Translations under genes and position numbers: made by a program
Virus genome (UHGV): UHGV-0098759
Source: a virus
Reading direction: 5' to 3' (one strand)
DNA: 35,139 nt
Part shown: positions 1,553-35,139 of the stretch, one piece after another
How positions within the stretch are numbered: position 1 is the first letter of the stretch
Layout: every line of letters begins with the position of its first letter
The notes under the pieces: model-generated
Told to the model about the DNA's origin: nothing
What the model saw: only the letters and a program-made list of their open reading frames with translations
Databases searched by the model: none

Positions 1553-1592
1553 GCCCCTATCGTTATAATACGCGGTAGGGGCGTTTTTGTTT
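1553..1592 (+). terminator. hairpin plus T-run downstream of the 1119..1538 gene
   Basis: Stem GCCCCTA/TAGGGGC with a large loop containing TTATAAT, followed by GTTTTTGTTT; could alternatively be a recombinase-proximal site. Confidence 0.35.
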
Positions 1593-1601
1593 GGAAATGG
1601 T

Positions 1602-3281
1602 ATGAAAACTAAACTGTATTCGTATATTCGCTTCTCGTCTATGCGTCAGAATGATGGTTCGAGTTATGAACGACAAATCAGGATGGCTAGAGAGATTGCG
1701 GTAAAGTATGACCTTGAACTGGTAAATGATTATCAGGATCTGGGTGTATCTGCGTTTAAGGGTGCTAACTCCAAAACAGGGGCGCTATCTCGTTTCCTTG
1801 ATGCAATAGGTAGATCCGTTCCTGTTGGTAGCTGGCTATTCATCGAAAACTTGGACCGTTTATCCCGTGCCGATATTGTCAGTGCGCAGGAGTTATTCCT
1901 TTCAATCATCCGTAGGGGGATAACCATTGTTACTGGCATGGATAACAAGATCTACTCGCTGGATACTGTTACCGCTAACCCGATGGACCTGATGTTCTCC
2001 ATCCTTTTATTCATCCGTGGTAATGAGGAAAGCCAGACTAAGCGCAATCGTACTAACTCAAGCGCACTGATTAAGATTAAAGCTCATCAAGAAAATCCAC
2101 AAAATCCGGCTGTTGCAATCGAGGAAATTGGAAAGAATATGTGGTGGACTGATACCACATCTGGTTATGTGCTTCCTCATCCGGTCTTCTTCCCTATTGT
2201 TCAGGAAGTTGTGGAATTACGCAGGAATGGACGGTCAACCGCCGAGATACTGGATCACCTTAACGCGACATACACACCACCACCAGCCGCAAGTCACAAG
2301 AGGCATTCAAACTGGTCACGGGCAATGATTGAAAGGTTGTTCCATACCCGCGCTTTGATTGGTATCAAGGAAATCTCTGTAGATGGCGTTAAGTATGAGT
2401 TAAAGGATTATTATCCTCGTGTGCTAGATGACGCTGAGTTTTATCACCTTAAGAAAAGCATTGGTGTTAGAGCATGTAACTTTGGAGACAAAGAAGAAGT
2501 TAAACCTATTCCCTTGCTTAGTGGTGTTGGTCTATTGAAATGTGAACATTGCGGTTCCGCTATGGTTAAGGTGAAAGGAACAAACAGACGGCCTAACCAA
2601 TATCGTTATTCATGCGATGCAATGCGCTCTAGTCGTATTGAATGTGTGCATACAAACTGGAGTTTTCGCGGCGACCAATTAGAGAAAGCTGTATTGCAAT
2701 TGCTGGCTGATAAAATCTGGATTGCTGAAGATAAGGCTAATCCGGTTCCGGCTTTGAAAGTACAGATTGATGAAATATCACGCAAGATTGATAACCTGAT
2801 TACCCTTTCTGCTATGACAGGAGCAACGAAGGAGCTAGCCGATCAGATTACTACCCTCAATAGCGAGCGTGAAACACTCTACAATCAAATTAAGATGGCA
2901 GAAGAGGAAATGTATTCTGTTGACTCTCAAGGCTGGGAGAAGCTCGCAGAATTTGATTTAGAAGATGTTTACAACGAGGATCGCATTAAGGTCCGGTTTA
3001 AGATTAAGCAAGCTCTAAAACGGATCGGGTGTAGCAGGATTGACAAGTACAAAAACTTGTTTGTATTGGAATACATCGATGGCAAGACCCAGAGAGTTGT
3101 AATAGAAAATTCAAGAGGACCGAGGAAAGGCCGGATCTTCATTGATTTGAAGACTATCAATGATAGGCAGATTCTGGAGAGTAACGGGCTTGTTCTGCAT
3201 CCATGTTTAGACATGCTGACAGATAAGAACTGGAAACCAGAAGAAGAAATACCAGGTCCATTACAGGAATTTGGAATTTAA
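1602..3281 (+). CDS. large serine recombinase (integrase-type)
   Basis: N-terminal YIRFSSMRQ matches the serine-recombinase catalytic motif; C-terminal Cys-rich zinc-ribbon (CEHCGS...YRYSC...IECVH) and coiled-coil region; track ORF starts at TTG 1587, first in-frame ATG is 1602. Confidence 0.8.
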   Translation: MKTKLYSYIRFSSMRQNDGSSYERQIRMAREIAVKYDLELVNDYQDLGVSAFKGANSKTGALSRFLDAIGRSVPVGSWLFIENLDRLSRADIVSAQELFLSIIRRGITIVTGMDNKIYSLDTVTANPMDLMFSILLFIRGNEESQTKRNRTNSSALIKIKAHQENPQNPAVAIEEIGKNMWWTDTTSGYVLPHPVFFPIVQEVVELRRNGRSTAEILDHLNATYTPPPAASHKRHSNWSRAMIERLFHTRALIGIKEISVDGVKYELKDYYPRVLDDAEFYHLKKSIGVRACNFGDKEEVKPIPLLSGVGLLKCEHCGSAMVKVKGTNRRPNQYRYSCDAMRSSRIECVHTNWSFRGDQLEKAVLQLLADKIWIAEDKANPVPALKVQIDEISRKIDNLITLSAMTGATKELADQITTLNSERETLYNQIKMAEEEMYSVDSQGWEKLAEFDLEDVYNEDRIKVRFKIKQALKRIGCSRIDKYKNLFVLEYIDGKTQRVVIENSRGPRKGRIFIDLKTINDRQILESNGLVLHPCLDMLTDKNWKPEEEIPGPLQEFGI

Positions 3282-10028: not shown

Positions 10029-10682
10029 TTATTTCTTCGATGAATGCCACCTGCTTTCTGATTGCCAGCGACCCGCCCTTGAGAAGAATAGATCGTTCTC
10101 GTTTCCAACATAGGAACGGTGGATACCATCGGAGGCATGACTACGAGCGTTTTTATCTAGAACTTCCCAGATACTATTAAGCTGAAATTCTGATTCGTTT
10201 TTACACTCATCATCTTCATGTTCGATGTTAATCCCGATGGAATCGACTACCCCACGGAAAACAGGGTAAGTGGTTTCAACTTTGCCCGTGTTGGGGTTAA
10301 GGAAAACCATCTCGATTTTCACATCTGATTTATCGAATTGCTTGTTACGAATCAGGGTAATGTATTCTTCGCGAACGTTAGAAACAGTTACGTTGATCCC
10401 GTTGTTGTTGATCTCCTTCTCTTCGGTATTCGATGAGATTTGAAGAAAATCACCCGTTGCGAGATATGTAAAACCGTTATAGTCCAAATCGAAATACCCA
10501 TCTGTAAGCCGTAGAACGTCCCCTGACGCTGTTATCACTTCGATAATGTGAAACATCGATCCAGTGGAGAAAAGCTGCGGTAGCGTCAATCTAGACACAT
10601 TCTGACCTGTCTGGTCGTTGTAGACCTCGATGAAGTCCAGATTAGTGCATAGTTTGCTGAATGATTCCTGAATAGTTGCCAT
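10029..10682 (-). CDS. minor tail protein, lambda L-like
   Basis: Synteny; start MATIQ at 10682 overlaps the upstream stop (TAATG). Confidence 0.5.
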   Translation of the reverse strand: MATIQESFSKLCTNLDFIEVYNDQTGQNVSRLTLPQLFSTGSMFHIIEVITASGDVLRLTDGYFDLDYNGFTYLATGDFLQISSNTEEKEINNNGINVTVSNVREEYITLIRNKQFDKSDVKIEMVFLNPNTGKVETTYPVFRGVVDSIGINIEHEDDECKNESEFQLNSIWEVLDKNARSHASDGIHRSYVGNENDLFFSRAGRWQSESRWHSSKK

Positions 10683-11242
10683 TATACATTCTCCACTAAT
10701 TCGAATTTCATCTTGCCAATCTGGGCGATCTTCCAATCGATATTTTCAGTTTTGAGAACAAATTCACCTTCTACGTTCTGATACTTGATCACCTCACCCG
10801 CTAGGACGTTCTGACGCAAGTTAGGGAAGAGTTTCATTTCACCACCTGATTTCACATCTTCGGTGATCGTGTAGATTTTCTTGTGGTTCTCAAACTGGAT
10901 GATAGTTCCTGCTTTCAGTGTTCCGGTGAAGTTGGAGATTCTCACCTTACGCCCACCGCGAGCAGTACCAGCAGCAGCCGTAACCATCTGGCGTACATCA
11001 CCTGTATATTTTGAAAAGTAAGACAGTGGCACACTAAAAGGACGACCAAAAAGGTGACGTGCTACAAATTCTTTTACTTCGTTAATATCCTGAGCCATGA
11101 AATTAGCTGTAAATTCTGCTTCATAAAAATGAATACCAGTAAAGCGACGCTGGAACTTACCAGAAATAGATTGCGCCTTGAAGAAAGGTTGTTTTGATTT
11201 AAGAGTAAAATCTGTGATTTTAATATTCTTGGATTTGAACAT
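10682..11242 (-). CDS. distal tail protein, lambda M-like position
   Basis: Immediately downstream of the tape measure gene; ATG at 11242 preferred; track ORF starts at GTG 11278 inside the hairpin. Confidence 0.45.
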   Translation of the reverse strand: MFKSKNIKITDFTLKSKQPFFKAQSISGKFQRRFTGIHFYEAEFTANFMAQDINEVKEFVARHLFGRPFSVPLSYFSKYTGDVRQMVTAAAGTARGGRKVRISNFTGTLKAGTIIQFENHKKIYTITEDVKSGGEMKLFPNLRQNVLAGEVIKYQNVEGEFVLKTENIDWKIAQIGKMKFELVENV

Positions 11243-11249
11243 AGAAAAA

Positions 11250-11291
11250 GCCCCCATAGTTTTATGATTATTTATCACTATGGGGGCTTTT
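11250..11291 (-). terminator. strong stem-loop (11-bp stem GCCCCCATAGT/ACTATGGGGGC) plus U-run between tape measure and the next tail gene
   Basis: Perfect 11-bp stem with T/A-rich flanks; the 3' arm contains the GGGGG Shine-Dalgarno of the downstream gene. Confidence 0.55.
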
Positions 11292-11293
11292 AA

Positions 11294-13726
11294 TTACATC
11301 TTACGACGCTGAACGTCTTCTATCGCCTGAGCAACAAACTTAGCGTGACGTTTGATAGCATCCATAACCATCTTGTCTGAGCTATTAACGTTGCCGTTAA
11401 TGTTCAAAGGCGCATTAACTTCAATCGGCTGAGAGTTACCACCGCCTGATTTTTGAGCAGATAAGAAGTCTTTCAAATCACCGTTAGTACGCTGATCAAC
11501 TACTCGTTCACCCTTATCAAGCAACCATGTACCCTCACGAGGGATGTTATCAATACCATCATGAGCCATACCGCTAACGTTAGTAGACTTGATGTTTGCG
11601 ATGTTCCCCATGTTCTGAGAAACAGCCAATGCAGCAGCAGCAATTTTTTGACCTGTGGTGACGTTGGTCGGATCGTTCCATGCATCGGTAGCAGCCGTCC
11701 ACATGTTCACCGTCGCTTGTCCAATAGAGAATGCCTTATGAGCATTGAAAGCCATCTGCATAGCCTTTGTGTTTTCCTGCCCGAAGAGAGTCATTGCAGC
11801 AGCAAAACCGCCATACATATCATCGGCTATTGACTGGCGAGCATCAGCATATTTCTTTTCAATTGCAGCCATCCGTTTTTGATGGTTTTCATTGAGTTTT
11901 TCTAATGCTTCCATCCGTTTAGCCGGATCGGTGATCCCATCAATCTTGAGTAGTTTATCGGTCTTATAATCTTGTTCGGCTTCCGATTTCTCTTTATCGA
12001 TTGCATTAAATTTAGCAAACGGATTATTTGAGTCTTGATAATCAAATCCGCTGGTTAATTGATTGGTTTTAAAACCATCCATTCCCTGTAAAGCATTGCC
12101 AATTTGACTATAATTCTGATTGGTATCATTCACACGACGCATATATTCATCGTAGGAGATAGCCTTACCATCAAGTAACCGTTTATGGCTTTCTAACTCA
12201 TTGTCCCTGATTTGTTGCAATTGTGTTAAAGCATTCAGCGCATCAACAGGATCAGCACCTAAGACCATTTTGTATACGTTTTCAGTATTCTGATCGATTA
12301 AGGATTGGCGTTTCGCGGCTGCGTCTTGTTGAGAGATTAAGCCCAGATCTAAAGCAGTATCCAAATCTTTCAAGCTGGCTTCTAACTGCTTGTTTTGAGA
12401 AGCAATAGACGCTGCAACTTGCCCTTGCAATTTAACATCAAGTGCATTCAGACGCTTGATTGCATCCTCACGTTCTTTCTGTGCTTTTTCTGCGGCTTCC
12501 TTAGCCTTTTTAGCTGCCTCTTCCGCTTTCTTGCGTGCTTCTTCCTCGGCTTTCTTCTCGTTGCCAGATTTACCCAATGATTCTGGTCTTACTGGTTTAT
12601 TTGGTAGAGTTAAATCAGTGTTAGGATCTGCCTTGCGTGTCAGATGTTCACCAGCATCTACGACAATCAGAGCACCATTTTTCTTATAAGACCCACCAAA
12701 ACGTTTCTTAAATCCTTCTACATCAAAGCCAGCAGTACGAGGATCGACACCAGCACCACGGATCGCGGCCTTTTCCCAATCTGCTAGATTATTCCAACGC
12801 TTTTCTTTATTGTACTTGTCAATAATCTTTTGAGCGTCTTTATGGTTGGCGTTAAGAATACCACCAGTTGCGGTCTTGCCTTCTTTATTCAGTCGATCTA
12901 ATGCCCTGAATAGAGAACTCTTTTCCCAATCAATATTAAACCAGTCAAATAACCAGTTTAAGCTATCAACCAAAGGACCAGAAATGGTCATGCCGACACC
13001 TTTCAGGTTATTTTCCAGCTTATTGATATTTTGAGAAAATTTATCATATTTTTTAGCGTTTTCTTCGGTGACGTTAACAGATTGATTCTGAATAGCGATC
13101 ATCGCCTCTTGAGCACTATTATATTTCTCAAGCTGGCTGGTCATATGACTTGAATCACTGGCTAAAGATTCCATCATGAACTTGATTTCAGCCATTGATT
13201 TTCCGGCTTTCTTCATGTCATAGAACACTTGGATCGCCGCTTTCATACCACCTTGCGGATCAGTCATGAAGTGAGCATAGTTTTCTAACTTAAGGCCAAC
13301 CGATTCTAAGTCATCAGCAATACCACCACCGTTAGCCCATGCATCACCCATCTTATCTAAGGTGTCTTTGTTGATATCACCGAATTTTTCAACTGTTAGG
13401 CCAGTACCAGAAAATTCCTTTTCCAGTCTTTGAAGGGATTCAATCGAGAGTCCGGTCGCCTTAGATACTTCTGAATATTGTTTAACGTATTCCGCGCCAG
13501 CTTTAGCGGCTGCAACCACTGCGGTCGCAACTAAGCCGATACCACCAGCAGCCAAACCAGCAGAGCCAGCGATCCCACGAAGAGATCCAGTCAGACCAGA
13601 TAAGCCACCACCAAAATCAATACCACTTGCCTTTTCAGACAAACTATCGAGAAGGTCGGCGGCTTCATTGGTACTTCTCCTTAGACCTTTATTATCCCCT
13701 TCTATTGTTACTATATGTTTTGTCAT
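11294..13726 (-). CDS. tail tape measure protein
   Basis: 810 aa, extended coiled-coil and low-complexity composition; follows G/T-like chaperone ORFs; ATG at 13726. Confidence 0.8.
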   Translation of the reverse strand: MTKHIVTIEGDNKGLRRSTNEAADLLDSLSEKASGIDFGGGLSGLTGSLRGIAGSAGLAAGGIGLVATAVVAAAKAGAEYVKQYSEVSKATGLSIESLQRLEKEFSGTGLTVEKFGDINKDTLDKMGDAWANGGGIADDLESVGLKLENYAHFMTDPQGGMKAAIQVFYDMKKAGKSMAEIKFMMESLASDSSHMTSQLEKYNSAQEAMIAIQNQSVNVTEENAKKYDKFSQNINKLENNLKGVGMTISGPLVDSLNWLFDWFNIDWEKSSLFRALDRLNKEGKTATGGILNANHKDAQKIIDKYNKEKRWNNLADWEKAAIRGAGVDPRTAGFDVEGFKKRFGGSYKKNGALIVVDAGEHLTRKADPNTDLTLPNKPVRPESLGKSGNEKKAEEEARKKAEEAAKKAKEAAEKAQKEREDAIKRLNALDVKLQGQVAASIASQNKQLEASLKDLDTALDLGLISQQDAAAKRQSLIDQNTENVYKMVLGADPVDALNALTQLQQIRDNELESHKRLLDGKAISYDEYMRRVNDTNQNYSQIGNALQGMDGFKTNQLTSGFDYQDSNNPFAKFNAIDKEKSEAEQDYKTDKLLKIDGITDPAKRMEALEKLNENHQKRMAAIEKKYADARQSIADDMYGGFAAAMTLFGQENTKAMQMAFNAHKAFSIGQATVNMWTAATDAWNDPTNVTTGQKIAAAALAVSQNMGNIANIKSTNVSGMAHDGIDNIPREGTWLLDKGERVVDQRTNGDLKDFLSAQKSGGGNSQPIEVNAPLNINGNVNSSDKMVMDAIKRHAKFVAQAIEDVQRRKM

Positions 13727-24657: not shown

Positions 24658-25152
24658 TTATCGCGTAAGACGTAATTTGATATTTTTAATCGGGCTAATT
24701 CCCTGTTTACGTCGTTCGGCTTGAATTAGTTTAGATAACTGACGTTCATAATCAGTCTTTAATTGCTGGAGAACACCTAATGACTCATAGGCGAAAGTAT
24801 TCCCTTTCACGGTCATTGCAGATAATGCGGCTTCGTCTCCAGATAGCCTGGCGAAAATAACTTGCTCTATGGTGGCGATAGTTTCCCGCAGATATTCTTT
24901 TTTGGATTGTTTGGCGAATACTGGTAAAACAGTTAATTCCTGCATTGATACCAGTTCATTTTCCAAAGTGGTTACGATGGTATATTTACCTTCGGCAAAA
25001 TCTAAGGTTTTAATCTCATGATTAGCCGGAGTGTCATCAACCTGATAAATGATACCTTTACTATTTCCTACCTGAATTGTTACACCCTCTTCATTCGCCA
25101 GCGTGATTTTTTCGCCTTTACGAATTACTAAGGGAATTAGTTCTAAACTCAT
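24658..25152 (-). CDS. head-associated protein (hypothetical), between terminase and portal
   Basis: ORF with RBS AAGGGG; occupies the position of lambda W but is much larger. Confidence 0.45.
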   Translation of the reverse strand: MSLELIPLVIRKGEKITLANEEGVTIQVGNSKGIIYQVDDTPANHEIKTLDFAEGKYTIVTTLENELVSMQELTVLPVFAKQSKKEYLRETIATIEQVIFARLSGDEAALSAMTVKGNTFAYESLGVLQQLKTDYERQLSKLIQAERRKQGISPIKNIKLRLTR

Positions 25153-25200
25153 AATTACCCCTTATTTAATTGTTATTGGATTAACAATATTTAGGAGCAA

Positions 25201-25218
25201 GCCGCCCCGAAGGACGGC
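25201..25218 (-). other. RNA hairpin with UUCG tetraloop on the minus-strand transcript, between terL and the next gene
   Basis: Minus-strand reading GCCGUCC-UUCG-GGGCGGC pairs with a G-U wobble; the plus-strand reading has a C-A mismatch; no U-run follows. Confidence 0.4.
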
Positions 25219-25223
25219 ATCAA

Positions 25224-27137
25224 TTAAAAGTTATTTACCCACCCACCACGACGCACAGGACGCGCCATAGGACGACGATTAGGTTTGTGATGAGTGATTG
25301 GCTTAGTTTCTTCGATTTGCTCGTTAGAATGTGATTTAGGAGCTTCTACGGTTGCTTCTGGTTCACGATTCAGCTTTTCTTTCATTGCAATGAGCTTATC
25401 CCATGACATTTTTGAAAGAACATAGCGAGAAGCCGCATAGCTATAAACCAGACAGTCGAGCGCCTCGTTTCGTGTCGCACCTGGATTTTTTACCCAACGT
25501 GTTCCAGTAACAGTACGCTTGATGGATTCACTCAAAAGCTGATCGAGATAATCATCAGGAACGGTTTCTGATATCTCTAAACCAATATGAGGGTTTTCTT
25601 TCAAGTTGCGTGTTAATAGCTCACGAATAGCCGTTTTACCCACGTTAACGCCCAACATAAGCAATTCATGACCACCCGTGGTAGTTGGTTTCACCGGAAT
25701 GATTGGAGCAGTACCAGATGAACTACCTTTGATTGCGTGTAAGTTCTTCCACTTACCACCGCAAATACGGTATCCGGCTTGAGTGAATCGACCGTTCGAT
25801 GTATCAAGGAAGCTGGCGAGCATAGGAACACGATCACCCGATACAGTAGTAAATTTGGTTTTATGGAAGTTGATTAATCTGTCCCATACAGGAGATTCAT
25901 ATCGTTCACAGTTATGGTCGTAAAAGCTGCGATGATCCAGAATATAAATCTTATCCTTTGCCACGCCCATGATCGTAGTTTCTGCGCGATCTAATTGCTG
26001 GTCAGTACCCGCACACAAGAAAATCACGTCATCAGGGATATTCTCGATAGAAACATCTGTTTTGAGTTGTTCCAGTTCATTTGCTTCTACTGCCGTGTCC
26101 TGATCGTCGTATACCTTACCTAACACTGTGTTATAAAATGATTGTAAATCAAAGGATTGCCACGCATGACTAAAATCAACCACACAAGCGCGGATACTAC
26201 TGAAAGGTGAATACAGACGGCTGATCCAGAATCCTGCTACTTCACTTTCACGGGTTGCTCTCCACTCGCCTTGCGCTACTGCCCTGATTCGTTCCCCTTC
26301 TGTCCATGATTGCTTACAGTGGGGGCAAATATAACGAGCGGTATCAGGATCGGGTAAGTTCTTACCATCGATGTTACGCCATTCAAATTGAACGTTTTCC
26401 CACTCGATCACCTGGTGTTCCCCGCAATGAGGACACGGAACAAAAAACATACGCATATCACTTGATAACCATTGCTGGTTAATGATTCCCAGCTTATTGG
26501 TTGGGGTACTAGAAACAATCAATCGAGCTTCATCACCAAAGGTAGTTAAACGGTTTGCAGTTAGTGCCACCGGACAACCTTCTTCGGTGATTGTTGCTGC
26601 GTCGCATTCGTCTACAATCCCTAACTTGGCAGTACGCCCACGCAAACTTGAAGGACTGGTCAAAGAAACCATGTAAAGGAAATGGTTTGTTTTTAGCTGA
26701 ATCTGGTTATTGTTGTTTACCGCATTACGATCATTCTTATCTGTTACCACTTCCTGTAATGCCGGACATGCTTCAATAGAAGGACGGATCTTAGTATTCA
26801 AGTACATAGCCACTTCTTTAGCGGTACTTTGCCCGATAATGATATTGCACGGATCGTTTGCCATCTGGTTAAACATGATCCCTGACATGATGGTCGTCTT
26901 TCCGATCTGCGCACTCGTACAAAAAACGTACTTCTTTTTCTTCTCAAGGAAAGGAGCATCAATCATGCCTTTCTGAAATGACAGTAATTTAACTTTATCC
27001 CCAGCACGAGGACCATCGACTAGCGTTAGATTCGCTTCGCACCATTCAGAAGGAAGGAGTTTAGGCGGTGGCGTAATATATTTGGCTGCATTTCTGAGAA
27101 TCTTTTTTAATTTGGCCTTATTAGAAATCAGTTTCAT
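25224..27137 (-). CDS. terminase large subunit, lambda A-like
   Basis: 637 aa; CPHCGEHQ and [14 protein letters not shown] motifs match the corresponding lambda large-terminase segments as recalled; RBS GAGGG. Confidence 0.9.
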
Positions 27138-27225
27138 GTAATTACCCTCATTACGAAATATGAAGGTATTTATTAAATTGTTGATATTTTGATAAATACG
27201 GGTATTAAGATTTAAGGGGGGGTGT

Positions 27226-27312
27226 ATGCTAATTAATCAGCAAGAAAGAGATGAATTAGAATTAGCCTTGTCTTGTCTTGTCTTGTCTTGTCTTGTCTTG
27301 TACCGATCATGA
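27226..27312 (+). CDS. 29-codon leader ORF with strong RBS that reads through the (CTTGT)7 repeat and stops at TGA
   Basis: ATG at 27226 preceded by AAGGGGGGG; frame is +1 out of register with the long downstream ORF; the repeat tract lies inside it. Confidence 0.35.
27267..27301 (+). repeat. perfect pentanucleotide tandem repeat (CTTGT)x7
   Basis: Read directly: cttgt repeated seven times from 27267 to 27301, at the 5' end of the 191-aa ORF. Confidence 0.95.
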
Positions 27313-27853
27313 ATATCGTTTGCCAGTAAAACATAAGCACTTAAAGACCGACTACACAACATCTGGCTTTAGTCGTGAGGAAGCTAAACAGATTTTAATC
27401 GAGTTGTATCGTGATAATGGGTATACCGATATTCATAACTTCTTTAAGAAGCATCGCACATCACAGACAGAGTTTCAGCGAGTCCGTGAGTGGTTTGATT
27501 TTGACATTAAGCGATTCTATCGAGTAGATGACGGTCCTATCTATCGGTTGCAGTGGACACCGATCAGGGAAGTGCTTAAACAGAAGAGATTGAATCATGC
27601 CATTACACGCTATCGTAACGTGGCTTTTAAGAAAGACTATGGTGATACAAGAGAACTATTCGTTGAACTCGCTAACGTGAAGTACAGCCACTATTACAAC
27701 GATCCTAAGTCCTTCTTTGAAGTGCTTCGCAAGGTTGATATAAGTCGGGGTACATATTATTCACGGTTGAAGAAGTACGGGATTAAGGTTGAGTTCTTTA
27801 TGTCAGTTGACGATGGAGAACTTTTTCCTATAAAATCTAAGTCCTCTAAATAA
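27278..27853 (+). CDS. tandem-HTH protein with two resolvase-type HTH-like modules; start codon uncertain
   Basis: Track ORF starts at TTG within the repeat; no in-frame ATG for about 175 codons; C-terminal module (GTYYSRLKKYGIKVEFFMSVDDGELFPI) is paralogous to the 86-aa and 60-aa proteins. Confidence 0.5.
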   Translation: MSCLVLSCTDHEYRLPVKHKHLKTDYTTSGFSREEAKQILIELYRDNGYTDIHNFFKKHRTSQTEFQRVREWFDFDIKRFYRVDDGPIYRLQWTPIREVLKQKRLNHAITRYRNVAFKKDYGDTRELFVELANVKYSHYYNDPKSFFEVLRKVDISRGTYYSRLKKYGIKVEFFMSVDDGELFPIKSKSSK

Positions 27854-27882
27854 AGGTGAACATTCACTTTAATTTGGAGAAA

Positions 27883-28116
27883 ATGACTATGACTACTAAA
27901 GCTACTCGCGGTCGTCCTGCCCGTTTTAATCGTGAACAACTGGCATACATTTGCTACGAGTTTTACAAAGCTGGCAAGGGTAAAGAAAGCAGAGAGAAAG
28001 TATTAAACGATCTGGGCATCTCCACCGCCCAGTTTTATAAAAGTATGAAGAAACTTAATGTCGAGTTCTTTATACGTGTAGACGGTGGAGAGGTTGTACC
28101 AATCAACGGAGTTTGA
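27883..28116 (+). CDS. small resolvase-type HTH DNA-binding protein (paralogue)
   Basis: ATG at 27883 with GGAGA RBS; TRGRPARF...GISTAQFYKSMKKLNVEFFIRVDGGEVVPI resembles the resolvase C-terminal HTH; track ORF begins at GTG 27856. Confidence 0.55.
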   Translation: MTMTTKATRGRPARFNREQLAYICYEFYKAGKGKESREKVLNDLGISTAQFYKSMKKLNVEFFIRVDGGEVVPINGV

Positions 28117-28125
28117 TTCTCATTG

Positions 28126-28150
28126 CCACTCTTCGGAGTGGCTTTTTTAT
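28126..28150 (+). terminator. intrinsic terminator with UUCG tetraloop (GCCACUC-UUCG-GAGUGGC, then U6)
   Basis: Perfect 7-bp stem, UUCG loop and T6 run immediately after the 86-aa gene. Confidence 0.7.
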
Positions 28151-28164
28151 ACCTATAGAAAACA

Positions 28165-28194
28165 AAAAGCCCCTGAAATTCAGGGGCAAAAATT
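28165..28194. promoter_or_regulatory. palindrome GCCCCTGAA-A-TTCAGGGGC containing one copy of the TTCAGGGGCAAAAAT iteron
   Basis: Perfect 9-bp inverted repeat whose right arm is identical to the iteron unit of the 30541-30716 array; lies between convergent genes. Confidence 0.5.
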
Positions 28195-28195
28195 A

Positions 28196-29038
28196 TTACA
28201 GTCCGAAGTGTTCCAGTGATCCAGCATTCTGACGAATCAGCAAAGCAGTATTATTGACGATTGCTCGTGAGTTATTCGGCTGTGGCAATTTCAAAGTTGC
28301 GGCCTTTTCTTCTTCAAGCAATCCGAGTTTTACGAGATGCGGGATAGCATCAGCAGTGAACTCGATCTGACCGTGTGCCGACATACGAGCGAACATATAG
28401 CCAGGAGGAAGCAGATCATAGCCTTTAGGCTTACCAGAATCATCCAGACGACGCTCAAGAACACCAGCAGCACATAAACCTTTCAGAATCATTTGTACCT
28501 TCGTAGAGCCTCGTTTTTCGCCTAATAAGCGGCTAAGACTGTGTGTGTCGATAGCTTTACGAACATGCAATTCAACCAGACGTTTGTTTTCGCGGGTTTT
28601 CTCTAATGCCAGTTCGATCCAATCGGTTTCTTCAAAGTGTTCATATGGATTAACCGGAACATTAGCTTTACCTTCTTTCATCAAACGCCATTCTTTAGCA
28701 ATTTTGAAGCGAAGCGGTGCATCGTATCCCATAACCAGAGTATTACAGAGATCTTCATCCAGTTCATACATCGGTTTATTACGATTCAGAGAATCTTTAT
28801 AAGTCGTTTCTTTATAAAAACCGATGGGCGCAAAATTGCGCTCATCTCCTCCGACCAGTTTGCTACCCTTTTCAAGTGAATCAACCATATTACGAAAATC
28901 ACGCATAACATCTTTATGATTCTTTCCGGTTAATTCCGCGATCTGCAAAGTAGACATGGTCAGCGGTTTGGTGTTATCAACAACCAGAGACACGGAAGCA
29001 GGTTTAATAGCAGTATTCATAGTAGTAACAGTATTCAT
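28196..29038 (-). CDS. Rha-family phage regulatory (antirepressor-like) protein
   Basis: N-terminal segment LTMSTLQIAELTGKNHKDVMRDFRNMV matches the conserved Rha N-terminal domain pattern as recalled; RBS AAGGGGG. Confidence 0.65.
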   Translation of the reverse strand: MNTVTTMNTAIKPASVSLVVDNTKPLTMSTLQIAELTGKNHKDVMRDFRNMVDSLEKGSKLVGGDERNFAPIGFYKETTYKDSLNRNKPMYELDEDLCNTLVMGYDAPLRFKIAKEWRLMKEGKANVPVNPYEHFEETDWIELALEKTRENKRLVELHVRKAIDTHSLSRLLGEKRGSTKVQMILKGLCAAGVLERRLDDSGKPKGYDLLPPGYMFARMSAHGQIEFTADAIPHLVKLGLLEEEKAATLKLPQPNNSRAIVNNTALLIRQNAGSLEHFGL

Positions 29039-29127
29039 AGTAAAATCCCCCTTAAACGGTTTAGTGATGATCCTCCTAGTTCCGGCATCACTACCGGAAC
29101 AATTTTATTTATAAAGAAATTTTTATC

Positions 29128-29274
29128 TCATTTAGATTCAGCAATCGCGCGATCAATTTCTTCTTGAATGCGACGCTGGCGTTCATGGAAGTCAACCATT
29201 GAGAAATTCAGGTTTGGGGTCCACGGTTTGCGGTTCGGGTTTTTGCGTCCATCAATTTTCTTAGTAGCGTTCAT
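29128..29274 (-). CDS. possible 48-aa basic small protein
   Basis: ATG at 29274, stop TGA at 29128-29130; below the track cutoff; weak RBS; sits between the promoter and the Rha gene. Confidence 0.25.
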   Translation of the reverse strand: MNATKKIDGRKNPNRKPWTPNLNFSMVDFHERQRRIQEEIDRAIAESK

Positions 29275-29332
29275 AATTAACATTCCATTTACAAATCTAG
29301 GTCAAATAGATTCATAGTTGTCAAGTGCGATA

Positions 29333-29361
29333 ATCATAAAAAAGTTAGAAATTTTTGTCAA
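29333..29361 (-). promoter_or_regulatory. near-consensus sigma70-type promoter on the minus strand (TTGACA-N17-TATGAT)
   Basis: Minus-strand -35 TTGACA (plus 29356-29361) and -10 TATGAT (plus 29333-29338) with a 17-nt spacer, upstream of the Rha gene. Confidence 0.55.
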
Positions 29362-29396
29362 TACCCCTTGACAAGACACCAAAGGGTTGACCTAAC

Positions 29397-29864
29397 TTAC
29401 AGCATATCTAAGCCTTCGTCGTAACCGTAGAAGCCATTCTGAGAAGAAAAACAGATTGGTGCGTAGTCGTCGTCATCTTCGTCTTGTTCATCTTCTTCTG
29501 GGGCTTCCTGAGCGGTTTCTTTACCGTAGTTAAACATTGCTTCATCCAGTTCATAGACAGTAACGAAGCTACCCAGATCAATGTCACCGGAACGGACTTG
29601 AAACGGCAGATCATCACGAACAATAATTGCTGGTAGATTCTGGTACTTTAAGCGTTCTTCATCGGTGAAGACGTTAACAACAATGGTCGGCTTCTTATTA
29701 CGGCAAAACGCATACCATGCACTAGAGAAATGGGATTCATCAGAGTTGAAAAGGATGTTATAACCACGTTCACGGAACATCTTCATTAACTTGTCATTGT
29801 GGAAGCTATCAGAATCCAGACCCAGAAGGATAAAAGGAGTAGTGGTAGTCATTTTATGGTTCAT
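29397..29864 (-). CDS. hypothetical protein with strongly acidic C-terminal tail
   Basis: ORF with GAGGA RBS; C-terminus EAPEEDEQDEDDDDYAP is highly acidic; no domain recognised. Confidence 0.5.
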   Translation of the reverse strand: MNHKMTTTTPFILLGLDSDSFHNDKLMKMFRERGYNILFNSDESHFSSAWYAFCRNKKPTIVVNVFTDEERLKYQNLPAIIVRDDLPFQVRSGDIDLGSFVTVYELDEAMFNYGKETAQEAPEEDEQDEDDDDYAPICFSSQNGFYGYDEGLDML

Positions 29865-29988
29865 AGTGGAAATCCTCTAAAAGAAAGTGAATCAATCTAA
29901 TATTATTTATAAAGAGAAAATTCTTGTTATTATGAAAAGAGTGATCTGGTAGAGTCCAAAACTGGTCTGTACTTGAAAGGTGATTGGA

Positions 29989-30399
29989 TTCAGTCGGGCT
30001 AAAGCCCTCCTTCATAGATTTTGATTAAATCATCACCAAAACGAAGAAGTATCTTTAGAATATAAGAATCTTTCTTTTGAAGAAATAATAATCAGGAAGA
30101 AATTTAGCAACCGAAGGTTGCAATCCCGAAGGGATACCAATACCTTTCTAGAAAGTGATTGTTACTCACTTCGTTCGTTTACTAGAATCAGTTAGTAACT
30201 AGTTTAAAATCCCTTTCAAGAAAATCCTTTCAGAAGTGATTCTCGATGCCACGCAGTGGCGTCGCAGACGTTTGAGAGTGAGCGAAGCGAGCGAGCAAAC
30301 TAGTTAATTCCTTCTAAGACCATCTAGTATCATCTAGTTTAAATTAGTGTTACTAGAAGTAATTGGTTAGCGCTTCGCGCAGTCGGGCTACGCCCTCCT
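29989..30399. repeat. pair of 20-bp direct repeats (CAGTCGGGCTA[A]AGCCCTCCT and CAGTCGGGCTACGCCCTCCT) bracketing about 370 bp of ORF-free sequence
   Basis: Read directly at 29989-30009 and 30380-30399; the interval holds two adjacent GAA-loop hairpins (30106-30136) and short internal repeats (ACTAGTTTAAA, TTACTAGAA). Confidence 0.5.
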
Positions 30400-30540
30400 A
30401 ATATCTTTTTGGTTATTTGTTGTTTTTGGTTTTACACATGAGCGTAGCGAATGTGTTATATAATATCTATGCACGCCCAATTCCCCGTTTTTGCCCTCAC
30501 TAACTTAATGTTTTATAAAGAGTTTTTCTTACCAATCCTT

Positions 30541-30716
30541 TTCGGGGGCAAATTTCAGGGGCAAAAATTAGATTTTCAGGGGCAATTATTGGCATTTCAG
30601 GGGCAAAAATGAGGGGCAAAATCACTGTTTCCCAGAATTTCAGGGGCAAAAATAGTGGGTTTCAGGGGCAAAAATGGGATGTGAAATCTAGGGGATTTTG
30701 GTTCAGGGGCAATTTT
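30541..30716 (+). repeat. iteron array: about 8 direct copies of TTCAGGGGCAA(A/T)(A/T)AT at roughly 21-bp spacing
   Basis: Copies start at about 30541, 30554, 30575, 30596, 30612 (partial), 30639, 30661 and 30702; an inverted partial copy lies near 30485-30498. Confidence 0.8.
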
Positions 30717-30753
30717 CATAGTGTAGGGCTAGTGTAGGTTTGAAAGTCCTTTG

Positions 30754-30782
30754 TTGACACTGTGTAGGAACAGTGGTATAAT
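30754..30782 (+). promoter_or_regulatory. perfect-consensus sigma70 promoter with extended -10 (TTGACA-N17-TGgTATAAT)
   Basis: TTGACA at 30754-30759, 17-nt spacer, TATAAT at 30777-30782 preceded by TGG; directly downstream of the iterons and upstream of an AT-rich tract. Confidence 0.65.
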
Positions 30783-31233
30783 TGACAATTCGAGATAAAT
30801 ATGTTATAATATTTGTATTGAAAGTAAAAATTTACCGATTTTCCTTCCTATTGTTATTATCCTGTTAAATTGTTATATGTCTGTTAAGGTTTGGATCTGA
30901 GAGAAAATCCTGTAACAAATCTTTACAATTCATAGCTCAATTAATACTCACCGCTTTAGCAAAAAGTGCTATGCATTTTTCTAAATTGATTAAATATACA
31001 TCAATTTGGTTAAATCGCGTTCTTCGCTTTAGCAATTCGTGCTGTGGTTTAACACATTTAACACGCCTGATAACATCTGAATAACATTTTAACATATCTC
31101 TGTTATAAATACATATATAAGAGATAAATGTGAGGGGTTGAAAAATTAAAAAACAATCCCCGTATAAATAACAATGAGCGGTTAACGCTCTTTTTTTTAA
31201 GAAATAATTAATCCAGATTTAGGAGGATTCAAG

Positions 31234-31416
31234 ATGGCACGACCTGTTAAGTTCACTCGTGAAATCGTTTTAGAAATGGCAAAGCGTTATTTTGAACTGA
31301 CGCCTGATGTAGTGATTGGTGAATGGTTTAAAGGTGAAGGTATTGATCAATCAACCTTCCACAAACTCTTAAAGAAGTATGACATTAAAGTAAAGATAAC
31401 CGCAGAGGTTTACTGA
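31234..31416 (+). CDS. small resolvase-type HTH DNA-binding protein (paralogue)
   Basis: Strong RBS AGGAGG before ATG 31234; MARPVKFTRE...GIDQSTFHKLLKKYDIKV is paralogous to the 27883..28116 product. Confidence 0.6.
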   Translation: MARPVKFTREIVLEMAKRYFELTPDVVIGEWFKGEGIDQSTFHKLLKKYDIKVKITAEVY

Positions 31417-31455
31417 TACTTTGACTGAGAATTATATGATGGCTTTAAAAATAAA

Positions 31456-31490
31456 AAAGCCCCCTTGCGGCAACAAGGAGGCTTTTGCGA
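31456..31490 (+). terminator. stem-loop (GCCCCCTTG-CGGCAA-CAAGGAGGC) plus T-run after the 60-aa gene
   Basis: 9-bp stem with one mismatch, followed by TTTTGCG. Confidence 0.4.
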
Positions 31491-31528
31491 TGAACAATTA
31501 AAACTAACTTTCCACAGGAGTATTTATA

Positions 31529-32470
31529 ATGTTATTTTCCGCTAACTTTTTCACTAACGAAGTAACCAACGCTAAAGCAGTTATCAAATTTGGCACCGAA
31601 GCAAACAAGAAGATTCAGCCGAAAGTTGTTGCTCATGTTTCCTTTGCGCAGCAGAAATCCGCTTTCGCTGGCTTTAAAGCACATCGTGAAGCACTGATCG
31701 CGGCTGGCTTTGGTGTTGACGGTAAACTGCCTAACGGCATTCGTAAAGCAATCGACCGCGTTAAACCAGCTAAAGACGTTGCAGTAGACCACATCGTTAC
31801 CTTTACCGTTAAGAACTCTTCTGAACTGTTCCACCTGGTTATTGCTGGTGATACTGCTATCGTTTCCGCTCCTAACATGGATTTTCAGGATACCGCTGAT
31901 TGCCAGATCACCTTCGGTCGTCGTAAAGAAGTTACCGGAAAAGCTAAACTGAACTTCACTAAATCCGGCAATCCTTACTTTGCTGTATTCTTTAACAGCC
32001 ACGCTACCGAAAAAGAAGTTGTAGAACTGGTTGCTTATGAAGGTGAAGAGAAAGAACGTATTGAATCTTGCGAAGCATTTCTGGAACTGGAAGCACAGGT
32101 TAATGCTGTTTCTCCTGTTGTAGAAGATCGCTTTGCTGCACTGGAAGCACAGATCGCAGAACTGAAAGCTGCACTGGAAGAAAAAGACCAGATTATCGAA
32201 GCCCAGAAAGCTGAAATTGAAGAACTGAAAGCTAAAGAAGTTGCTCCGGTGGCAGTAGTTGAAAATGCGGCTGATGAGGCCGCAAATGATGAAGTAGAAG
32301 TGAAAATCGATGTGATGCGTGATCCGATGGCTGCACTGCAATTGCTTCGTTCTTTTAAGGGCAAATCTCATTTTTCTAGTGATGCGGTAGACGAGGAAGA
32401 AGAACAGAAACGCAATGCTGCAATGCTTCATGATGAAATGTACGGTACTAACTTTTCTTACTGCCAATAA
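31529..32470 (+). CDS. hypothetical protein with C-terminal coiled coil and acidic tail
   Basis: RBS AGGAG; codon choice visibly differs from neighbouring genes (CGT/CTG/GAA/AAA/GGT-rich); segment AALEAQIAELKAALEEKDQIIEAQKAEIEELKAKE; no domain recognised. Confidence 0.6.
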   Translation: MLFSANFFTNEVTNAKAVIKFGTEANKKIQPKVVAHVSFAQQKSAFAGFKAHREALIAAGFGVDGKLPNGIRKAIDRVKPAKDVAVDHIVTFTVKNSSELFHLVIAGDTAIVSAPNMDFQDTADCQITFGRRKEVTGKAKLNFTKSGNPYFAVFFNSHATEKEVVELVAYEGEEKERIESCEAFLELEAQVNAVSPVVEDRFAALEAQIAELKAALEEKDQIIEAQKAEIEELKAKEVAPVAVVENAADEAANDEVEVKIDVMRDPMAALQLLRSFKGKSHFSSDAVDEEEEQKRNAAMLHDEMYGTNFSYCQ

Positions 32471-32474
32471 AAAA

Positions 32475-32495
32475 GGGACTCCGAAGAGTCCCTAG
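32475..32495 (+). terminator. hairpin GGGACUC-CGAA-GAGUCCC downstream of the 313-aa gene
   Basis: Perfect 7-bp stem; weak U-tract, so it may be a stability element rather than a terminator. Confidence 0.4.
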
Positions 32496-32574
32496 TAAGT
32501 TTAGGTTAGGTTTGCACAACAAAGATGAGGTTATAATGAACATAATGCTACATTATTCTTTAAAGCCAGAAAAA

Positions 32575-32600
32575 TAACCGCCCCGAAGGGCGGGAGGATT
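32575..32600 (-). terminator. minus-strand terminator (CCGCCC-UUCG-GGGCGG followed by UUAUUUUUCU)
   Basis: Perfect 6-bp stem with a UUCG loop on the minus-strand reading, followed by a U-rich tract, downstream of the small membrane-protein ORFs. Confidence 0.5.
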
Positions 32601-32751
32601 AATACTCAATCTATACTTGTTATGTTTTTGTGTTGTATAGATCACTGACTATGAAAACACTGTACTGGAGTGTGTTTTATGGCTTTTAATCGGGAATCCT
32701 CAAAGAAGATCCCCTGTTAATAACCATAAGGAGAAAAGGCAGATTACACTA

Positions 32752-32925
32752 TTATTTAGTATCCTTTTTACAGCAACTAAAAAGAATAAACTGGATTAAG
32801 CATACCCAGCCGTAAGGCGTACCGATTAGAAATTTGAAAAACACCACCAGCGATATAAAAATCAATTTAATGCCAGCGACGATAGTCAAAAACAGCAGAG
32901 TAGCAAAGTAGACAAAAAGATCCAT
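32752..32925 (-). CDS. possible 57-aa membrane protein with two hydrophobic helices
   Basis: ATG at 32925 with RBS AGAGGA at 7 nt; hydrophobic segments FVYFATLLFLTIVAGIKLIFISLVVFF and GWVCLIQFILF; below the track cutoff. Confidence 0.4.
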   Translation of the reverse strand: MDLFVYFATLLFLTIVAGIKLIFISLVVFFKFLIGTPYGWVCLIQFILFSCCKKDTK

Positions 32926-32978
32926 AGATAATCCTCTTTGAAAACGACCATCATCTATAGTTCAATTCATCGATTTAA

Positions 32979-33080
32979 TTAATGATACTTGAAAGCGTTA
33001 CACACAGTAGAAATGCCAATGTGAGCAAGTGAATATACGATAGTTAATCCTACAGCCAGATAAATCAAAAATTCAACCAT
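32979..33080 (-). CDS. possible 33-aa hydrophobic peptide
   Basis: ATG at 33080 with RBS GAGGA at 7 nt; sequence MVEFLIYLAVGLTIVYSLAHIGISTVCNAFKYH. Confidence 0.35.
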   Translation of the reverse strand: MVEFLIYLAVGLTIVYSLAHIGISTVCNAFKYH

Positions 33081-33180
33081 AGGTAAATCCTCAAATAAGA
33101 AAAAGGTTAGCGGGGGATGTTCTCCCCCGTAGACGTTGACCAGCTCAACATCCTTCACGTATATATTTAGTATCTAATTT

Positions 33181-33735
33181 TTAAGACACATCAAATTCAT
33201 CGTCTTCTTCTGGTTCTTGTTCCGGTTCATCCATTAATGCTAATTCTTCTTCCTCGTCTTCTCCCAAATCTGCATTTTCGAACAAGTCCCCTACTTCATT
33301 TAAACGACGTTCGATGATCTCCCTTAGCTTATTCTTCAATGTTTTCTGATCAGTGGCGGATTCTAAAATTTCTAGGGCATCGATCGTACAAATCTGCAAA
33401 ATAGTCTGTTTCACTTTCCCGCAGTATTCCGCTAGTTCCTGTTCTACATAACCGACAGGAATCAGGAGATTCATTTTTTCCTGGTTCTCTCGTTCGGCTG
33501 CATCTGCCAAAGCACGTTCACGGCGTAATTTCTCTACGTCGATTTGTTCTTTGATAGAAGTTTGTTTAAGCGGGTTGATAATATTTTTCAAGACCCATTC
33601 TGTTCCTTCTTTGGCTGGCACGCGGCGGGTATTGGTGTTAAATGGCAATCCCCTTTCTAACCATCGCTTACCGCCACCATTCAATGTATAGCCATATAAA
33701 CGGGAAATTTCTGTAAGGGTTAATTCTTCTTTCAT
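33181..33735 (-). CDS. putative terminase small subunit (Nu1-like HTH) or HTH DNA-binding protein
   Basis: N-terminal HTH pattern (LTEISRLYGYT...W...GLPF) and GGGK segment resemble the lambda Nu1 N-terminus; coiled middle; very acidic C-terminus; RBS GGAGG. Confidence 0.4.
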   Translation of the reverse strand: MKEELTLTEISRLYGYTLNGGGKRWLERGLPFNTNTRRVPAKEGTEWVLKNIINPLKQTSIKEQIDVEKLRRERALADAAERENQEKMNLLIPVGYVEQELAEYCGKVKQTILQICTIDALEILESATDQKTLKNKLREIIERRLNEVGDLFENADLGEDEEEELALMDEPEQEPEEDDEFDVS

Positions 33736-33854
33736 TGGTTATCCTCCATTAAATTTGCGTAATTTTATTTATTGGTTTTACGCACAATCTAAGCGCCTAA
33801 ATCGCATTCTAACGAAGGGAAAGATCCAGTAATGGTAAGGGTTAGGAAGTGGGT

Positions 33855-33900
33855 TAATAGTCGCGTAGCGACCGCGCCATAAGTGAAGTGATCACGTTTT
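33855..33900. other. GC-rich island with imperfect dyad symmetry (GTCGCGTAGCGAC, GCGACCGCGCC, GTGATCAC) upstream of the terS-like gene; candidate cos or packaging site
   Basis: Local GC-rich symmetric motif in an AT-rich divergent intergenic region; shares GCGACC with the lambda cohesive end as recalled. Confidence 0.2.
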
Positions 33901-34093
33901 AGAATCTCACACGCACATCAAATACCGGGGTGCCGAAAACTCCCTTTATTTCATCCGTGGAACAGTACCTTTTTAATTTGTCAAGCATTAATTTCTTAAT
34001 TTAATTACTAAATCTCATCCCAATAATTGAAAAAATATCAAAAATCAATAAAGTAAGCATCTAAAAGTCAGTCCATACCAAAAGAGGTATAAA

Positions 34094-34888
34094 ATGAAAA
34101 ACATTATCGCTGCTATCGTTCTTTCTGCTACTGCATTCGGTGCTAATGCTGCATCCTTCGATTGCACTAAAGCTACTACCAAATCAGAGAAGTTTATTTG
34201 TGCTAATGAGTCAATCTCCGCACTGGACTCTAAACTTCATGAAGTATATGTTAAGGCTGTTAAGATTGATCCGTCGCTTAAACAAGAGCAACGCAACTGG
34301 AATAAAACTGTTCGTGATACAATGATCAATATCGGGCAGATTCAGCCACTGGAGGCTGTATACAACGCTCAAATCCAAAACTTGATGGATGTATTATCTA
34401 AAGAAGAAACCGCGTCAGAAAGCGATTCAGAGACTTCTGCGAAGGTTGAAGAAGAACAACCGAAGGCAGTAGAAACTCTAAAAACCAAAGAGAAACAAGT
34501 TGTTCTGGAAAAGTCCCCAAATAGCAACTTCGTATATATTTGTCCGAAAGTAGTTAAGATAACCACAATTGACGGACTGAGTGTAGAAGATCGTGATATA
34601 GTGAAAGAAAACACAAAAATTGTAATCGATAAAAACAAAGACAAGGCAAAACTTCTAATTTCTGGAACGATGCACCCCCCAGTTGTAGTGGAAATGAATA
34701 TTGACGCTGATGGATTCATGTCAAAAACTACAAAAACTGGTGTAGAGTTATACGCACAACACGGAAAAACATATTCCGGTGATAAGATGGTTGATGATGT
34801 AAGAACACTGGACTATCATCATATTTATGTTGACAACCGTACCGGAAAGGAAATCGAATGGAAATATTCTTGTGTAGAGAAAAAATGA
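34094..34888 (+). CDS. secreted protein with LprI-like (lysozyme-inhibitor-like) N-terminal domain
   Basis: Signal peptide MKNIIAAIVLSATAFGANA, then SFDCTKATTKSEKFICANESISALDSKLHEVY matching the LprI-type pattern as recalled; signal peptide resembles that of the 1119..1538 product. Confidence 0.55.
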   Translation: MKNIIAAIVLSATAFGANAASFDCTKATTKSEKFICANESISALDSKLHEVYVKAVKIDPSLKQEQRNWNKTVRDTMINIGQIQPLEAVYNAQIQNLMDVLSKEETASESDSETSAKVEEEQPKAVETLKTKEKQVVLEKSPNSNFVYICPKVVKITTIDGLSVEDRDIVKENTKIVIDKNKDKAKLLISGTMHPPVVVEMNIDADGFMSKTTKTGVELYAQHGKTYSGDKMVDDVRTLDYHHIYVDNRTGKEIEWKYSCVEKK

Positions 34889-35020
34889 TAGAGGCGACAT
34901 AATACAATCAGAGATAGTTAAACGCCTGAATATTACTAGTTAGTTCCTAAGTTCATTTCTTATGGTGTTAATTGCGACTCAGTTGCTATAGAATTCTTCT
35001 AATTCATTGATTCTATAGCC

Positions 35021-35052
35021 CTGTCCTTGTGATGGGGCTTTTTATTGCAAAA
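35021..35052 (+). terminator. intrinsic terminator (AGCCCT...GGGGCT followed by TTTTTATT)
   Basis: Stem-loop of the same AGCCCUG...GGGGCU type as the late-operon terminators, followed by a T-run, downstream of the 264-aa gene. Confidence 0.45.
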
Positions 35053-35139
35053 TTTTTAGTTATTTTGGGTTGACTACATTCGGGTTGCCAATTCGCCTGG
35101 CTAACTCTTGCTGAGTGATTTCTGACTGTAAAAAAGCAT

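Follow-up and report, generated by a model that had tools for sequence, protein, structure and literature searches.

Small putative helix-turn-helix paralogs and a repeat-matched gene cassette in the early region of an Escherichia coli prophage

CopR of pIP501, CopG of pMV158 and lambda Cro are small repressors that are encoded before rep or early genes. Lambdoid O proteins with their ori iterons, and Rep_3 initiators, combine short direct repeats with a swappable N-terminal specificity domain. Here we compare with these systems a locus in virus genome UHGV-0098759, a 35,139-nucleotide stretch of DNA that we refer to as the window. The 35.1-kb window is essentially one complete prophage, 100% identical to that of E. 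coli PI7 (NZ_CP074033.1, 753142-788280). The locus contains three genes for small putative helix-turn-helix (HTH) proteins (A, B and C), a repeat (iteron) array and a further gene, X. Coordinates are those of the window unless another contig is named:

27226..27853, + strand: gene A, predicted two-module HTH protein of about 200 amino acids when intact; frameshifted in the window
27889..28116, + strand: gene B, predicted 75-amino-acid single-module HTH protein whose N-terminal arm reads RGRP and whose C-terminal part has a beta-hairpin motif
30541..30716, + strand: type-1 iteron array, TTCAGGGGCAAAAAT, with seven matches at no more than 3 mismatches plus partial copies
31234..31416, + strand: gene C, predicted 60-amino-acid single-module HTH protein, always directly upstream of X
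31529..32470, + strand: gene X, 313 amino acids, directly downstream of C

The C and X genes resemble the Cop and Cro arrangements in that the gene for a putative DNA-binding protein of 60-90 amino acids stands first in an operon with an iteron- or origin-related protein. Unlike in those systems, C has no sequence relationship to CopR, CopG or Cro, and no operator was identified for it. Cro-type proteins also covary with immunity type, whereas C covaries with nothing tested. X resembles lambdoid O and Rep_3 proteins in its swappable N-terminal domain, in repeats that keep helical phase (21-22 nucleotides) and in a C-terminal part that is common to types. It differs from them in having no family match and in that its iterons lie outside the gene.

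Iteron types and the N-terminal domain of X

We compared 30 related loci, of which 26 are IMG/VR loci fetched through C and four are more divergent loci fetched through distant family members. Five repeat types occur in this set. All types, including the repeats of a T4-like contig, are found at one position, upstream of C:

Type 1: TTCAGGGGCAAAAAT; the window, 12 IMG/VR loci and L036
Type 2: (TA)GTGTAGGT(TT); 12 loci
Type 3: CGGGGAT...; L019 and L020
Type 4: CTAGGGAT(A/G); L032
Type 5: TTC(A/G)RATGC(T/C)A...; L035
T4-like contig: TAGCGATTAC; L030

Most of the iteron types read consist of a specific (G+C-rich) core followed by an A/T run, and no sub-motif common to all types was found. The spacings in the window array are 13, 21, 21, 43, 22 and 41 nucleotides. 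The window contains 9 matches to TTCAGGGGCAAAAAT compared to 1.7 expected; these are the seven of the array, a copy at 28179 and one probable chance match.

Clustering of all open reading frames (ORFs) showed that A, B and C are common to all types. The ORF directly downstream of C, that is X, clusters exactly by iteron type (type 1, 13/13; type 2, 12/12). Over the first 170 residues, X proteins of one type share 75-100% identity (median 99%), and those of different types share 16-30%. Between-type identity for A, B and C reaches maxima of 98, 100 and 100% and within-type identity falls to minima of 51, 55 and 53%, with completely overlapping distributions. Identical C is found with type-1 and type-2 arrays (L004 versus L006 and L012 versus L013), identical B alleles recur with types 1, 2 and 3, and the A sequences read from types 1-3 show no change in the recognition helices. 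Locus L036 encodes a C that is about 50% identical to the window C, yet has type-1 repeats and a type-1 X N-terminal domain.

Two loci (L022 and L013) carry an array with the ‘wrong’ promoter and leader type, and X still matches the array. The promoter, the leader and C, which lie between the iterons and the X N-terminal domain, recombine freely, and both ends always stay matched. One X protein (P0070, 340 amino acids) is a natural chimera of a type-3 N-terminal domain on a type-1 coiled coil and tail, which confirms the N-terminal domain as the exchangeable specificity module. As the X N-terminal domain tracks the repeat type perfectly and A, B and C do not, X is the likely iteron-specific partner. 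We infer that X reads the iteron array via its N-terminal domain, and the matched ends are the pattern expected if so.

The first-pass annotation had put forward the small HTH proteins as candidates for the iteron-binding regulators or replication initiators of this phage. The absence of covariation between the recognition parts of A, B or C and the iteron sequence, across 30 loci and five types, does not support that role, and annotation of A, B and C as iteron-binding or replication proteins should be avoided. We instead favor, with a probability of roughly 0.55, a reading in which A, B and C are conserved accessory regulators or co-factors of the early module and not array readers, while the X N-terminal domain reads the array. 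The early control module of the prophage would thus include A, B and C, with C as the constant partner gene of X. C would most likely be a small DNA-binding regulator or co-factor of the C-X operon, similar to Cop or Cro proteins, and what it recognizes would be present in every variant, unlike the type-specific repeats. A and B would be additional paralogs that share this general role. For A, B and C, DNA binding itself, the regulatory role and the targets are inferred.

Several results weigh against this reading. None of the three HTH proteins could be linked to a binding site. The AlphaFold2 (AF2) model of the X N-terminal domain has a predicted local distance difference test (pLDDT) score of 37. 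A conserved leader box, TTTAGCAAnnnGTGCT, which could have been a C operator, has 2 matches compared to 1.1 expected and is not significant. Moreover, C is identical across promoter/leader and X-tail types, and a classical promoter operator is therefore not obvious.

The modular pairing of iterons with X and the conserved C-X cassette are of more interest than the HTH proteins themselves, and X is the partner of the array that is of experimental interest. The natural specificity swaps provide ready-made matched and mismatched pairs for binding work.

Paralogy, fold and coding status of A, B and C

The three products had been described as sharing one module, present twice in the product of the ORF at 27278, and both statements are borne out. 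In local BLOSUM62 alignments tested against 2000 shuffles, the C-terminal half of A matches B with z=11.9 (0/2000 shuffles as good), A matches C with z=5.9, B matches C with z=5.4 and the N-terminal half of A matches its C-terminal half with z=5.3. A family profile made from an alignment of 24 module sequences matches two stretches in a 203-amino-acid A homologue (P0028). In this alignment, the R, F, R-E, I and K-K positions are nearly invariant. We conclude from the shuffle scores, the module alignment and the profile matches that the paralogy and the internal duplication of A are real. The reported motif is essentially as written, except that the VD(D/G)GE..PI hairpin motif is limited to A and B; at its C-terminal end, C has one beta-like strand, IKVKITAEVY.

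All three genes are under purifying selection, with median pairwise ratios of non-synonymous to synonymous substitution rates of 0.14 for A, 0.19 for B and 0.14 for C (250-290 pairs), and are therefore real coding genes. The likely start of B is ATG 27889, which gives 75 amino acids as in P0006 and RefSeq; an alternative ORF start lies at 27856. The coordinates reported for this ORF (27883, 77-86 amino acids) are corrected accordingly.

No curated model matches A, B or C at threshold in Pfam, PHROGs, NCBIfam or PADLOC scans. Pfam scores peak at 12-14 bits (HTH_Tnp_1 and UPF0175 for C, Phage_g100 for B), with cut-offs of 24-28. HTH_7 (PF02796) does not match A, B or C even at E<=1. HTH_Tnp_1 (PF01527) matches C at 12.3 bits (E 0.2, cut-off 24.1) and does not match A or B. 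The PDB sequence search with the HTH profile returned nothing significant, and a Foldseek search with the C model returned no match with E<0.6 in PDB and BFVD.

A word-indexed homologue search recovered 27 clusters only, all labeled ‘hypothetical’ and all from Escherichia, Salmonella and Edwardsiella. An exhaustive profile search recovered 34 proteins. Those outside the family are proteins of 5-7 tandem repeats that read ...F/I-C-K-E-x-G-I-S-x-x-T-Y-Y-x-x-L-K-K-Y-G-I... and carry the Pfam labels HTH_Tnp_1, HTH_23, HTH_28 and HTH_7. Each repeat scores 10-22 bits, with significance coming from the sum only. The profile searches that the first-pass annotation had proposed as a check thus connect the family to HTH-labeled proteins, while translated and nucleotide searches (tblastn/blastn) of 50,697 phage records with B, C, X and the T4-like C and X gave no match. 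The structure prediction that it had also proposed yields three helices in the AF2 model of C, built with the family alignment (residues 9-21, 28-35 and 39-48; mean pLDDT 73.5).

Taken together, these results make a transposase/resolvase-style HTH the likeliest fold for A, B and C. The model of C and the profile matches make an HTH plausible at moderate strength; the designation ‘resolvase-type’ holds to that extent and not as HTH_7 membership. Neither HTH_7 nor HTH_Tnp_1 membership is seen at threshold, and support for HTH_Tnp_1 is transitive, through the tandem-repeat proteins.

IS3-family OrfA proteins (HTH_Tnp_1, also HTH_23 and HTH_28) are among the closest described counterparts. As in those proteins, a basic R-P-x-K-F-T-R-E stretch precedes helix 1 and the HTH, and x-G-I-S/D-x-S-T-F/Y-x-K-x-L-K-K-Y would form helix 2, turn and helix 3; HTH_Tnp_1 is also the best Pfam match of C. 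Differences include the sub-threshold score, the lack of a transposase partner and the extra C-terminal beta-hairpin motif (VEFF..VDGGE..PI) of A and B. Unlike the C-terminal domain of Hin and gamma-delta resolvase (HTH_7), A, B and C are standalone ORFs of 60-200 amino acids that are not fused to a serine-recombinase catalytic domain. We picture a lineage-specific, tri-helical family in which a basic N-terminal arm precedes the three helices and one or two beta strands follow them; the tandem duplication in A would probably let one chain stand in for a dimer. Only this prophage lineage has A and B. The family consists of new but ordinary small-HTH phage proteins that had not been annotated.

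Gene A contains a tandem repeat in its 5' coding part:

27267..27301: (CTTGT)7 pentanucleotide tract, perfect
27338..27565, + strand: A module 1, a degenerate copy without the RP arm and the G-I-S turn
27590..27850, + strand: A module 2, the copy nearest to B

Intact A proteins of about 200 amino acids that start MLINQQ(E/Q) are encoded in 24 of the 26 IMG/VR relatives. This start corresponds to ATG 27226 of the window, which is preceded by a strong GGGGGGG Shine-Dalgarno sequence. In the window, (CTTGT)7 shifts the frame of ATG 27226 by +1 and leads to a TGA stop at 27310-27312, after 28 codons. The body of A remains open from TTG 27278 (191 amino acids) or from TTG 27320 (the RefSeq start, 177 amino acids). 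The previously listed 191-amino-acid ORF, which has no in-frame ATG, is thus an artefact of a frameshifted gene whose real start is ATG 27226. Because seven copies are out of frame, gene A is, judged by its reading frame, inactivated or much reduced here by repeat slippage.

The tract has seven copies in the window, six in the 99.9%-identical prophage of strain 24AR0357 (L029), nine in an IMG/VR locus of a different sub-lineage (L027) and two or degenerate copies in the other relatives read. Gene A therefore combines a coding-region tandem repeat with copy-number differences that change the frame, as phase-variable genes do. The three expanded alleles seen (6, 7 and 9 copies) are all out of frame, and may reflect either phase variation or slippage-driven inactivation. 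Slipped-strand contingency loci are known, an example being the CTCTT pentamer in Neisseria opa genes. Gene A resembles these loci in that a 5' coding pentanucleotide tract, with 7 versus 6 copies in near-identical strains, sets the frame; it differs in that most relatives have two copies and all three expanded alleles are out of frame. Truncated A fragments are common among database homologues (P0002-P0005, P0008, P0010 and P0022), and L035 also has a split A gene.

A promoter-like site (10/12) lies at 27807-27836, inside the 3' end of A and just upstream of B. This site could allow B expression even with A out of frame.

The C-X cassette and its flanking DNA

We identified C directly upstream of X in E. 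coli-type, Salmonella-like (L036) and Edwardsiella-like (L035) prophages and in L032, as well as in a T4-like 168-kb contig (L030) and a short unassigned contig (L034). Type-specific repeats were read upstream in each context but L034, a 1.1-kb contig with no repeats evident in the 360 nucleotides available. Between the repeats and X, the order in the window is promoter, leader, terminator, C and terminator:

30144..30360: CTAG-box repeats, approximately YTTCTAGAARGTGATT, partly palindromic
30245..30540: non-coding, type-specific segment containing G+C-rich mini-hairpins, exchanged along with the iterons
30483-30496: inverted partial iteron copy
30754..30810, + strand: two overlapping sigma-70 promoters, TTGACA-17-TATAAT, 12/12, with TG extension
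30811..31198, + strand: structured leader of about 400 nucleotides (fold z=-4.3) that ends before the C ribosome-binding site
31176-31198, + strand: terminator hairpin and T8 that end the leader
31455..31486: bidirectional terminator-like hairpin between C and X
4894-6625 of L030: T4-like cassette with the TAGCGATTAC repeats, a promoter, a 64-amino-acid C-like gene, a 204-amino-acid X-like gene and an 80-amino-acid coiled-coil gene

A promoter and a hairpin with T-run precede C in the window, the IMG/VR loci, L032 and L036 (aligned or read). For L030, L034 and L035, hairpins at this position were noted by eye only. The leader could be a non-coding RNA or an attenuator; it has no Rfam match, and an Rfam scan of 27000-35139 found nothing credible.

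The physical linkage of the HTH genes to the array, noted in the first-pass annotation, is real and conserved. In the window, the phrase ‘beside an iteron array’ fits C, which lies 520 nucleotides downstream of the array, and does not fit A and B, which lie 2.4-3.2 kb away with three genes between. In L035, the array is followed by A and B and then by the leader, and A, B, C and X share one strand, giving the order iterons-A-B-leader-C-X.

The L030 cassette is inserted between homologues of T4 genes 3 and 2, a junction that spans 106 nucleotides in T4 itself. We considered an analogy to T4 oriE/repEA/repEB and rejected it, as those are ORFs of 45-50 amino acids antisense to gene 5 and the L030 cassette lies between the gene 3 and gene 2 homologues.

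C alleles track neither iteron type, promoter/leader type nor X-tail type, which implies that the C target must be common to all variants. Candidate targets include the CTAG boxes at 30144-30360, the A/T tract that follows the iteron core in most types, and X itself. CTAG occurs 7 times in 500 nucleotides in this region compared to an average of 0.9, and the boxes are kept in the divergent loci L032 (10889-11143) and L036 (10901-11171) whatever the iteron type. The CTAG boxes are thus candidate sites for a conserved DNA-binding protein. The mini-hairpin stretch changes with iteron type from about 30245 onward. The full run of mini-hairpins covers 30100-30460 (GCAACCGAAGGTTGC, TCCCGAAGGGA, GAGCGAAGCGAGC and GCGCTTCGCGC) and includes several UUCG-type loops on the minus strand.

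X consists of a type-specific N-terminal domain of about 170 amino acids that is rich in predicted strands; a coiled coil comes next, then an acidic linker, and the tail is short. X has no significant match in Pfam, PHROGs, NCBIfam, PADLOC or phage and plasmid collections, and its profile returned coiled-coil noise only from PDB sequences. The only hint of an initiator family is a sub-threshold match of the T4-like X, and of no other X, to NCBIfam RepM (18.5 bits, cut-off 250). Otherwise, X has neither a Pfam match nor a tblastn match in PLSDB that would place it among Rep_3/RepM-type initiators. A homologue search with the N-terminal domain of the T4-like X recovered the query itself only.

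X may be an origin-binding initiator or a regulator/immunity protein. The 21-22-nucleotide phasing, the adjacent G+C-rich mini-hairpins, the A+T-rich DNA and the strong adjacent promoter suggest an origin role. Two further points suggest the same: the prophage contains no other replication gene, and the cassette is present in a T4-like phage, which is presumably lytic and would not need an immunity repressor. Counting against an origin role, no plasmid appears to carry the cassette (tblastn/blastn of C and X against the 72,556 plasmids of PLSDB gave no match), and the prophage is also without a recognizable repressor. As the prophage has neither a recognizable repressor nor a recognizable replication gene, its replication or immunity is best approached through the C-X-iteron cassette.

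Type-2 X proteins (P0058, P0062 and L021:6297-7322) end in a variable (AY)n run, from AYAYAA up to AYAYAYAYAYAA. In most X proteins the tail finishes in -AA, a possible resemblance to C-terminal ClpXP degrons.

A broader proposal, which we hold only tentatively, is that the repeats, promoter, terminator, C and X form an undescribed modular recognition system that swaps specificities. At least five to six repeat types would each be matched to an X N-terminal domain variant without detectable relatives in the curated families and solved structures searched. Such a system would occur in enterobacterial prophages and at least one T4-like phage and serve as an origin or as an immunity/exclusion determinant, with C as a universal, type-independent co-factor and A and B as lineage-specific duplicates.

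Alternative roles and prophage context

An alternative that we regard as unlikely has C, and perhaps B, acting at the iterons themselves as a type-independent co-factor that binds X or the A/T tract through its RP/RGRP arm and helps X assemble. The universal C-X linkage, the AT-hook-like RGRP arm of B and ARP arm of C, the core and A/T-run layout of most iteron types read, and the independence of C from promoter, leader and tail type are all consistent with this idea. It is purely inferential, however; the iteron types share no sub-motif, and C variants do not track X tails.

Sequence-specific iteron binding by A, B and/or C, as regulators or replication initiators, is highly improbable and, as far as specificity goes, already refuted. 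The three proteins are HTH-like, C is near the array, A and B start directly after the array in L035, and an exact iteron 15-mer (28179-28193) adjoins B. The lack of covariation argues against this alternative, as do the C and B alleles that are shared across array types and the constant A recognition helices. Two terminators lie downstream of B:

28125-28150: B's own terminator
28169..28193: palindrome GCCCCTGAA/TTCAGGGGC with minus-strand T-run, the intrinsic terminator of the Rha gene

The 15-mer is one arm of the Rha terminator hairpin and is retained in 10 of 14 loci of iteron types 2 and 3. As a terminator arm that is kept in loci with other iteron types, it is uninformative on B.

The remaining alternatives depend on the wider prophage. 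The prophage is inserted at hicB via a large serine recombinase and has a long structural operon on the minus strand. Genes A, B, C and X and the array sit in a short ‘early’ region that extends from terL to the right prophage end. Two genes outside this region are relevant:

1587-3281: serine recombinase/integrase, 564 amino acids, a separate gene
25224-27137, minus strand: large terminase gene terL, lambda-gpA-type

Small basic HTH proteins in a temperate element with a serine integrase could be recombination directionality factors (excisionases) for that enzyme, which we consider very improbable. C- and X-like genes occur in L030, where no integrase is among the genes called in the 13.6-kb stretch read and where the T4-like phage is expected to be lytic. 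Furthermore, the HTH genes are 24-30 kb from the integrase on the prophage map, and C is tied to X everywhere.

A packaging role (as small terminase or cos-binding HTH proteins), suggested by the position of A and B next to terL, is the least probable of all: A and B are on the strand opposite terL, rather than co-oriented upstream of it as Nu1-type small terminases are, and show no TerS similarity; their position beside terL is not conserved, as L035 places them elsewhere; a separate 184-amino-acid ORF (33181-33735) matches PHROG 57, terminase small subunit (6e-11), and has an L035 counterpart with faint Phage_Nu1 matches; and C-like genes are far from the terminase genes in the T4-like phage.

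We identified related prophages in 58 of 5,426 complete E. coli genomes. The lineage has no cultured representative in INPHARED, deposited phages contain no relative of the prophage region, and a literature search found nothing on this prophage.

RefSeq lists terL of PI7 as a frameshifted pseudogene (25111-27137), and the same 637-amino-acid ORF is annotated as intact in strain 24AR0357. The Edwardsiella-like locus L035 encodes, at its prophage end (10543-12174), a reverse-transcriptase and TIR gene that is probably a defence gene.

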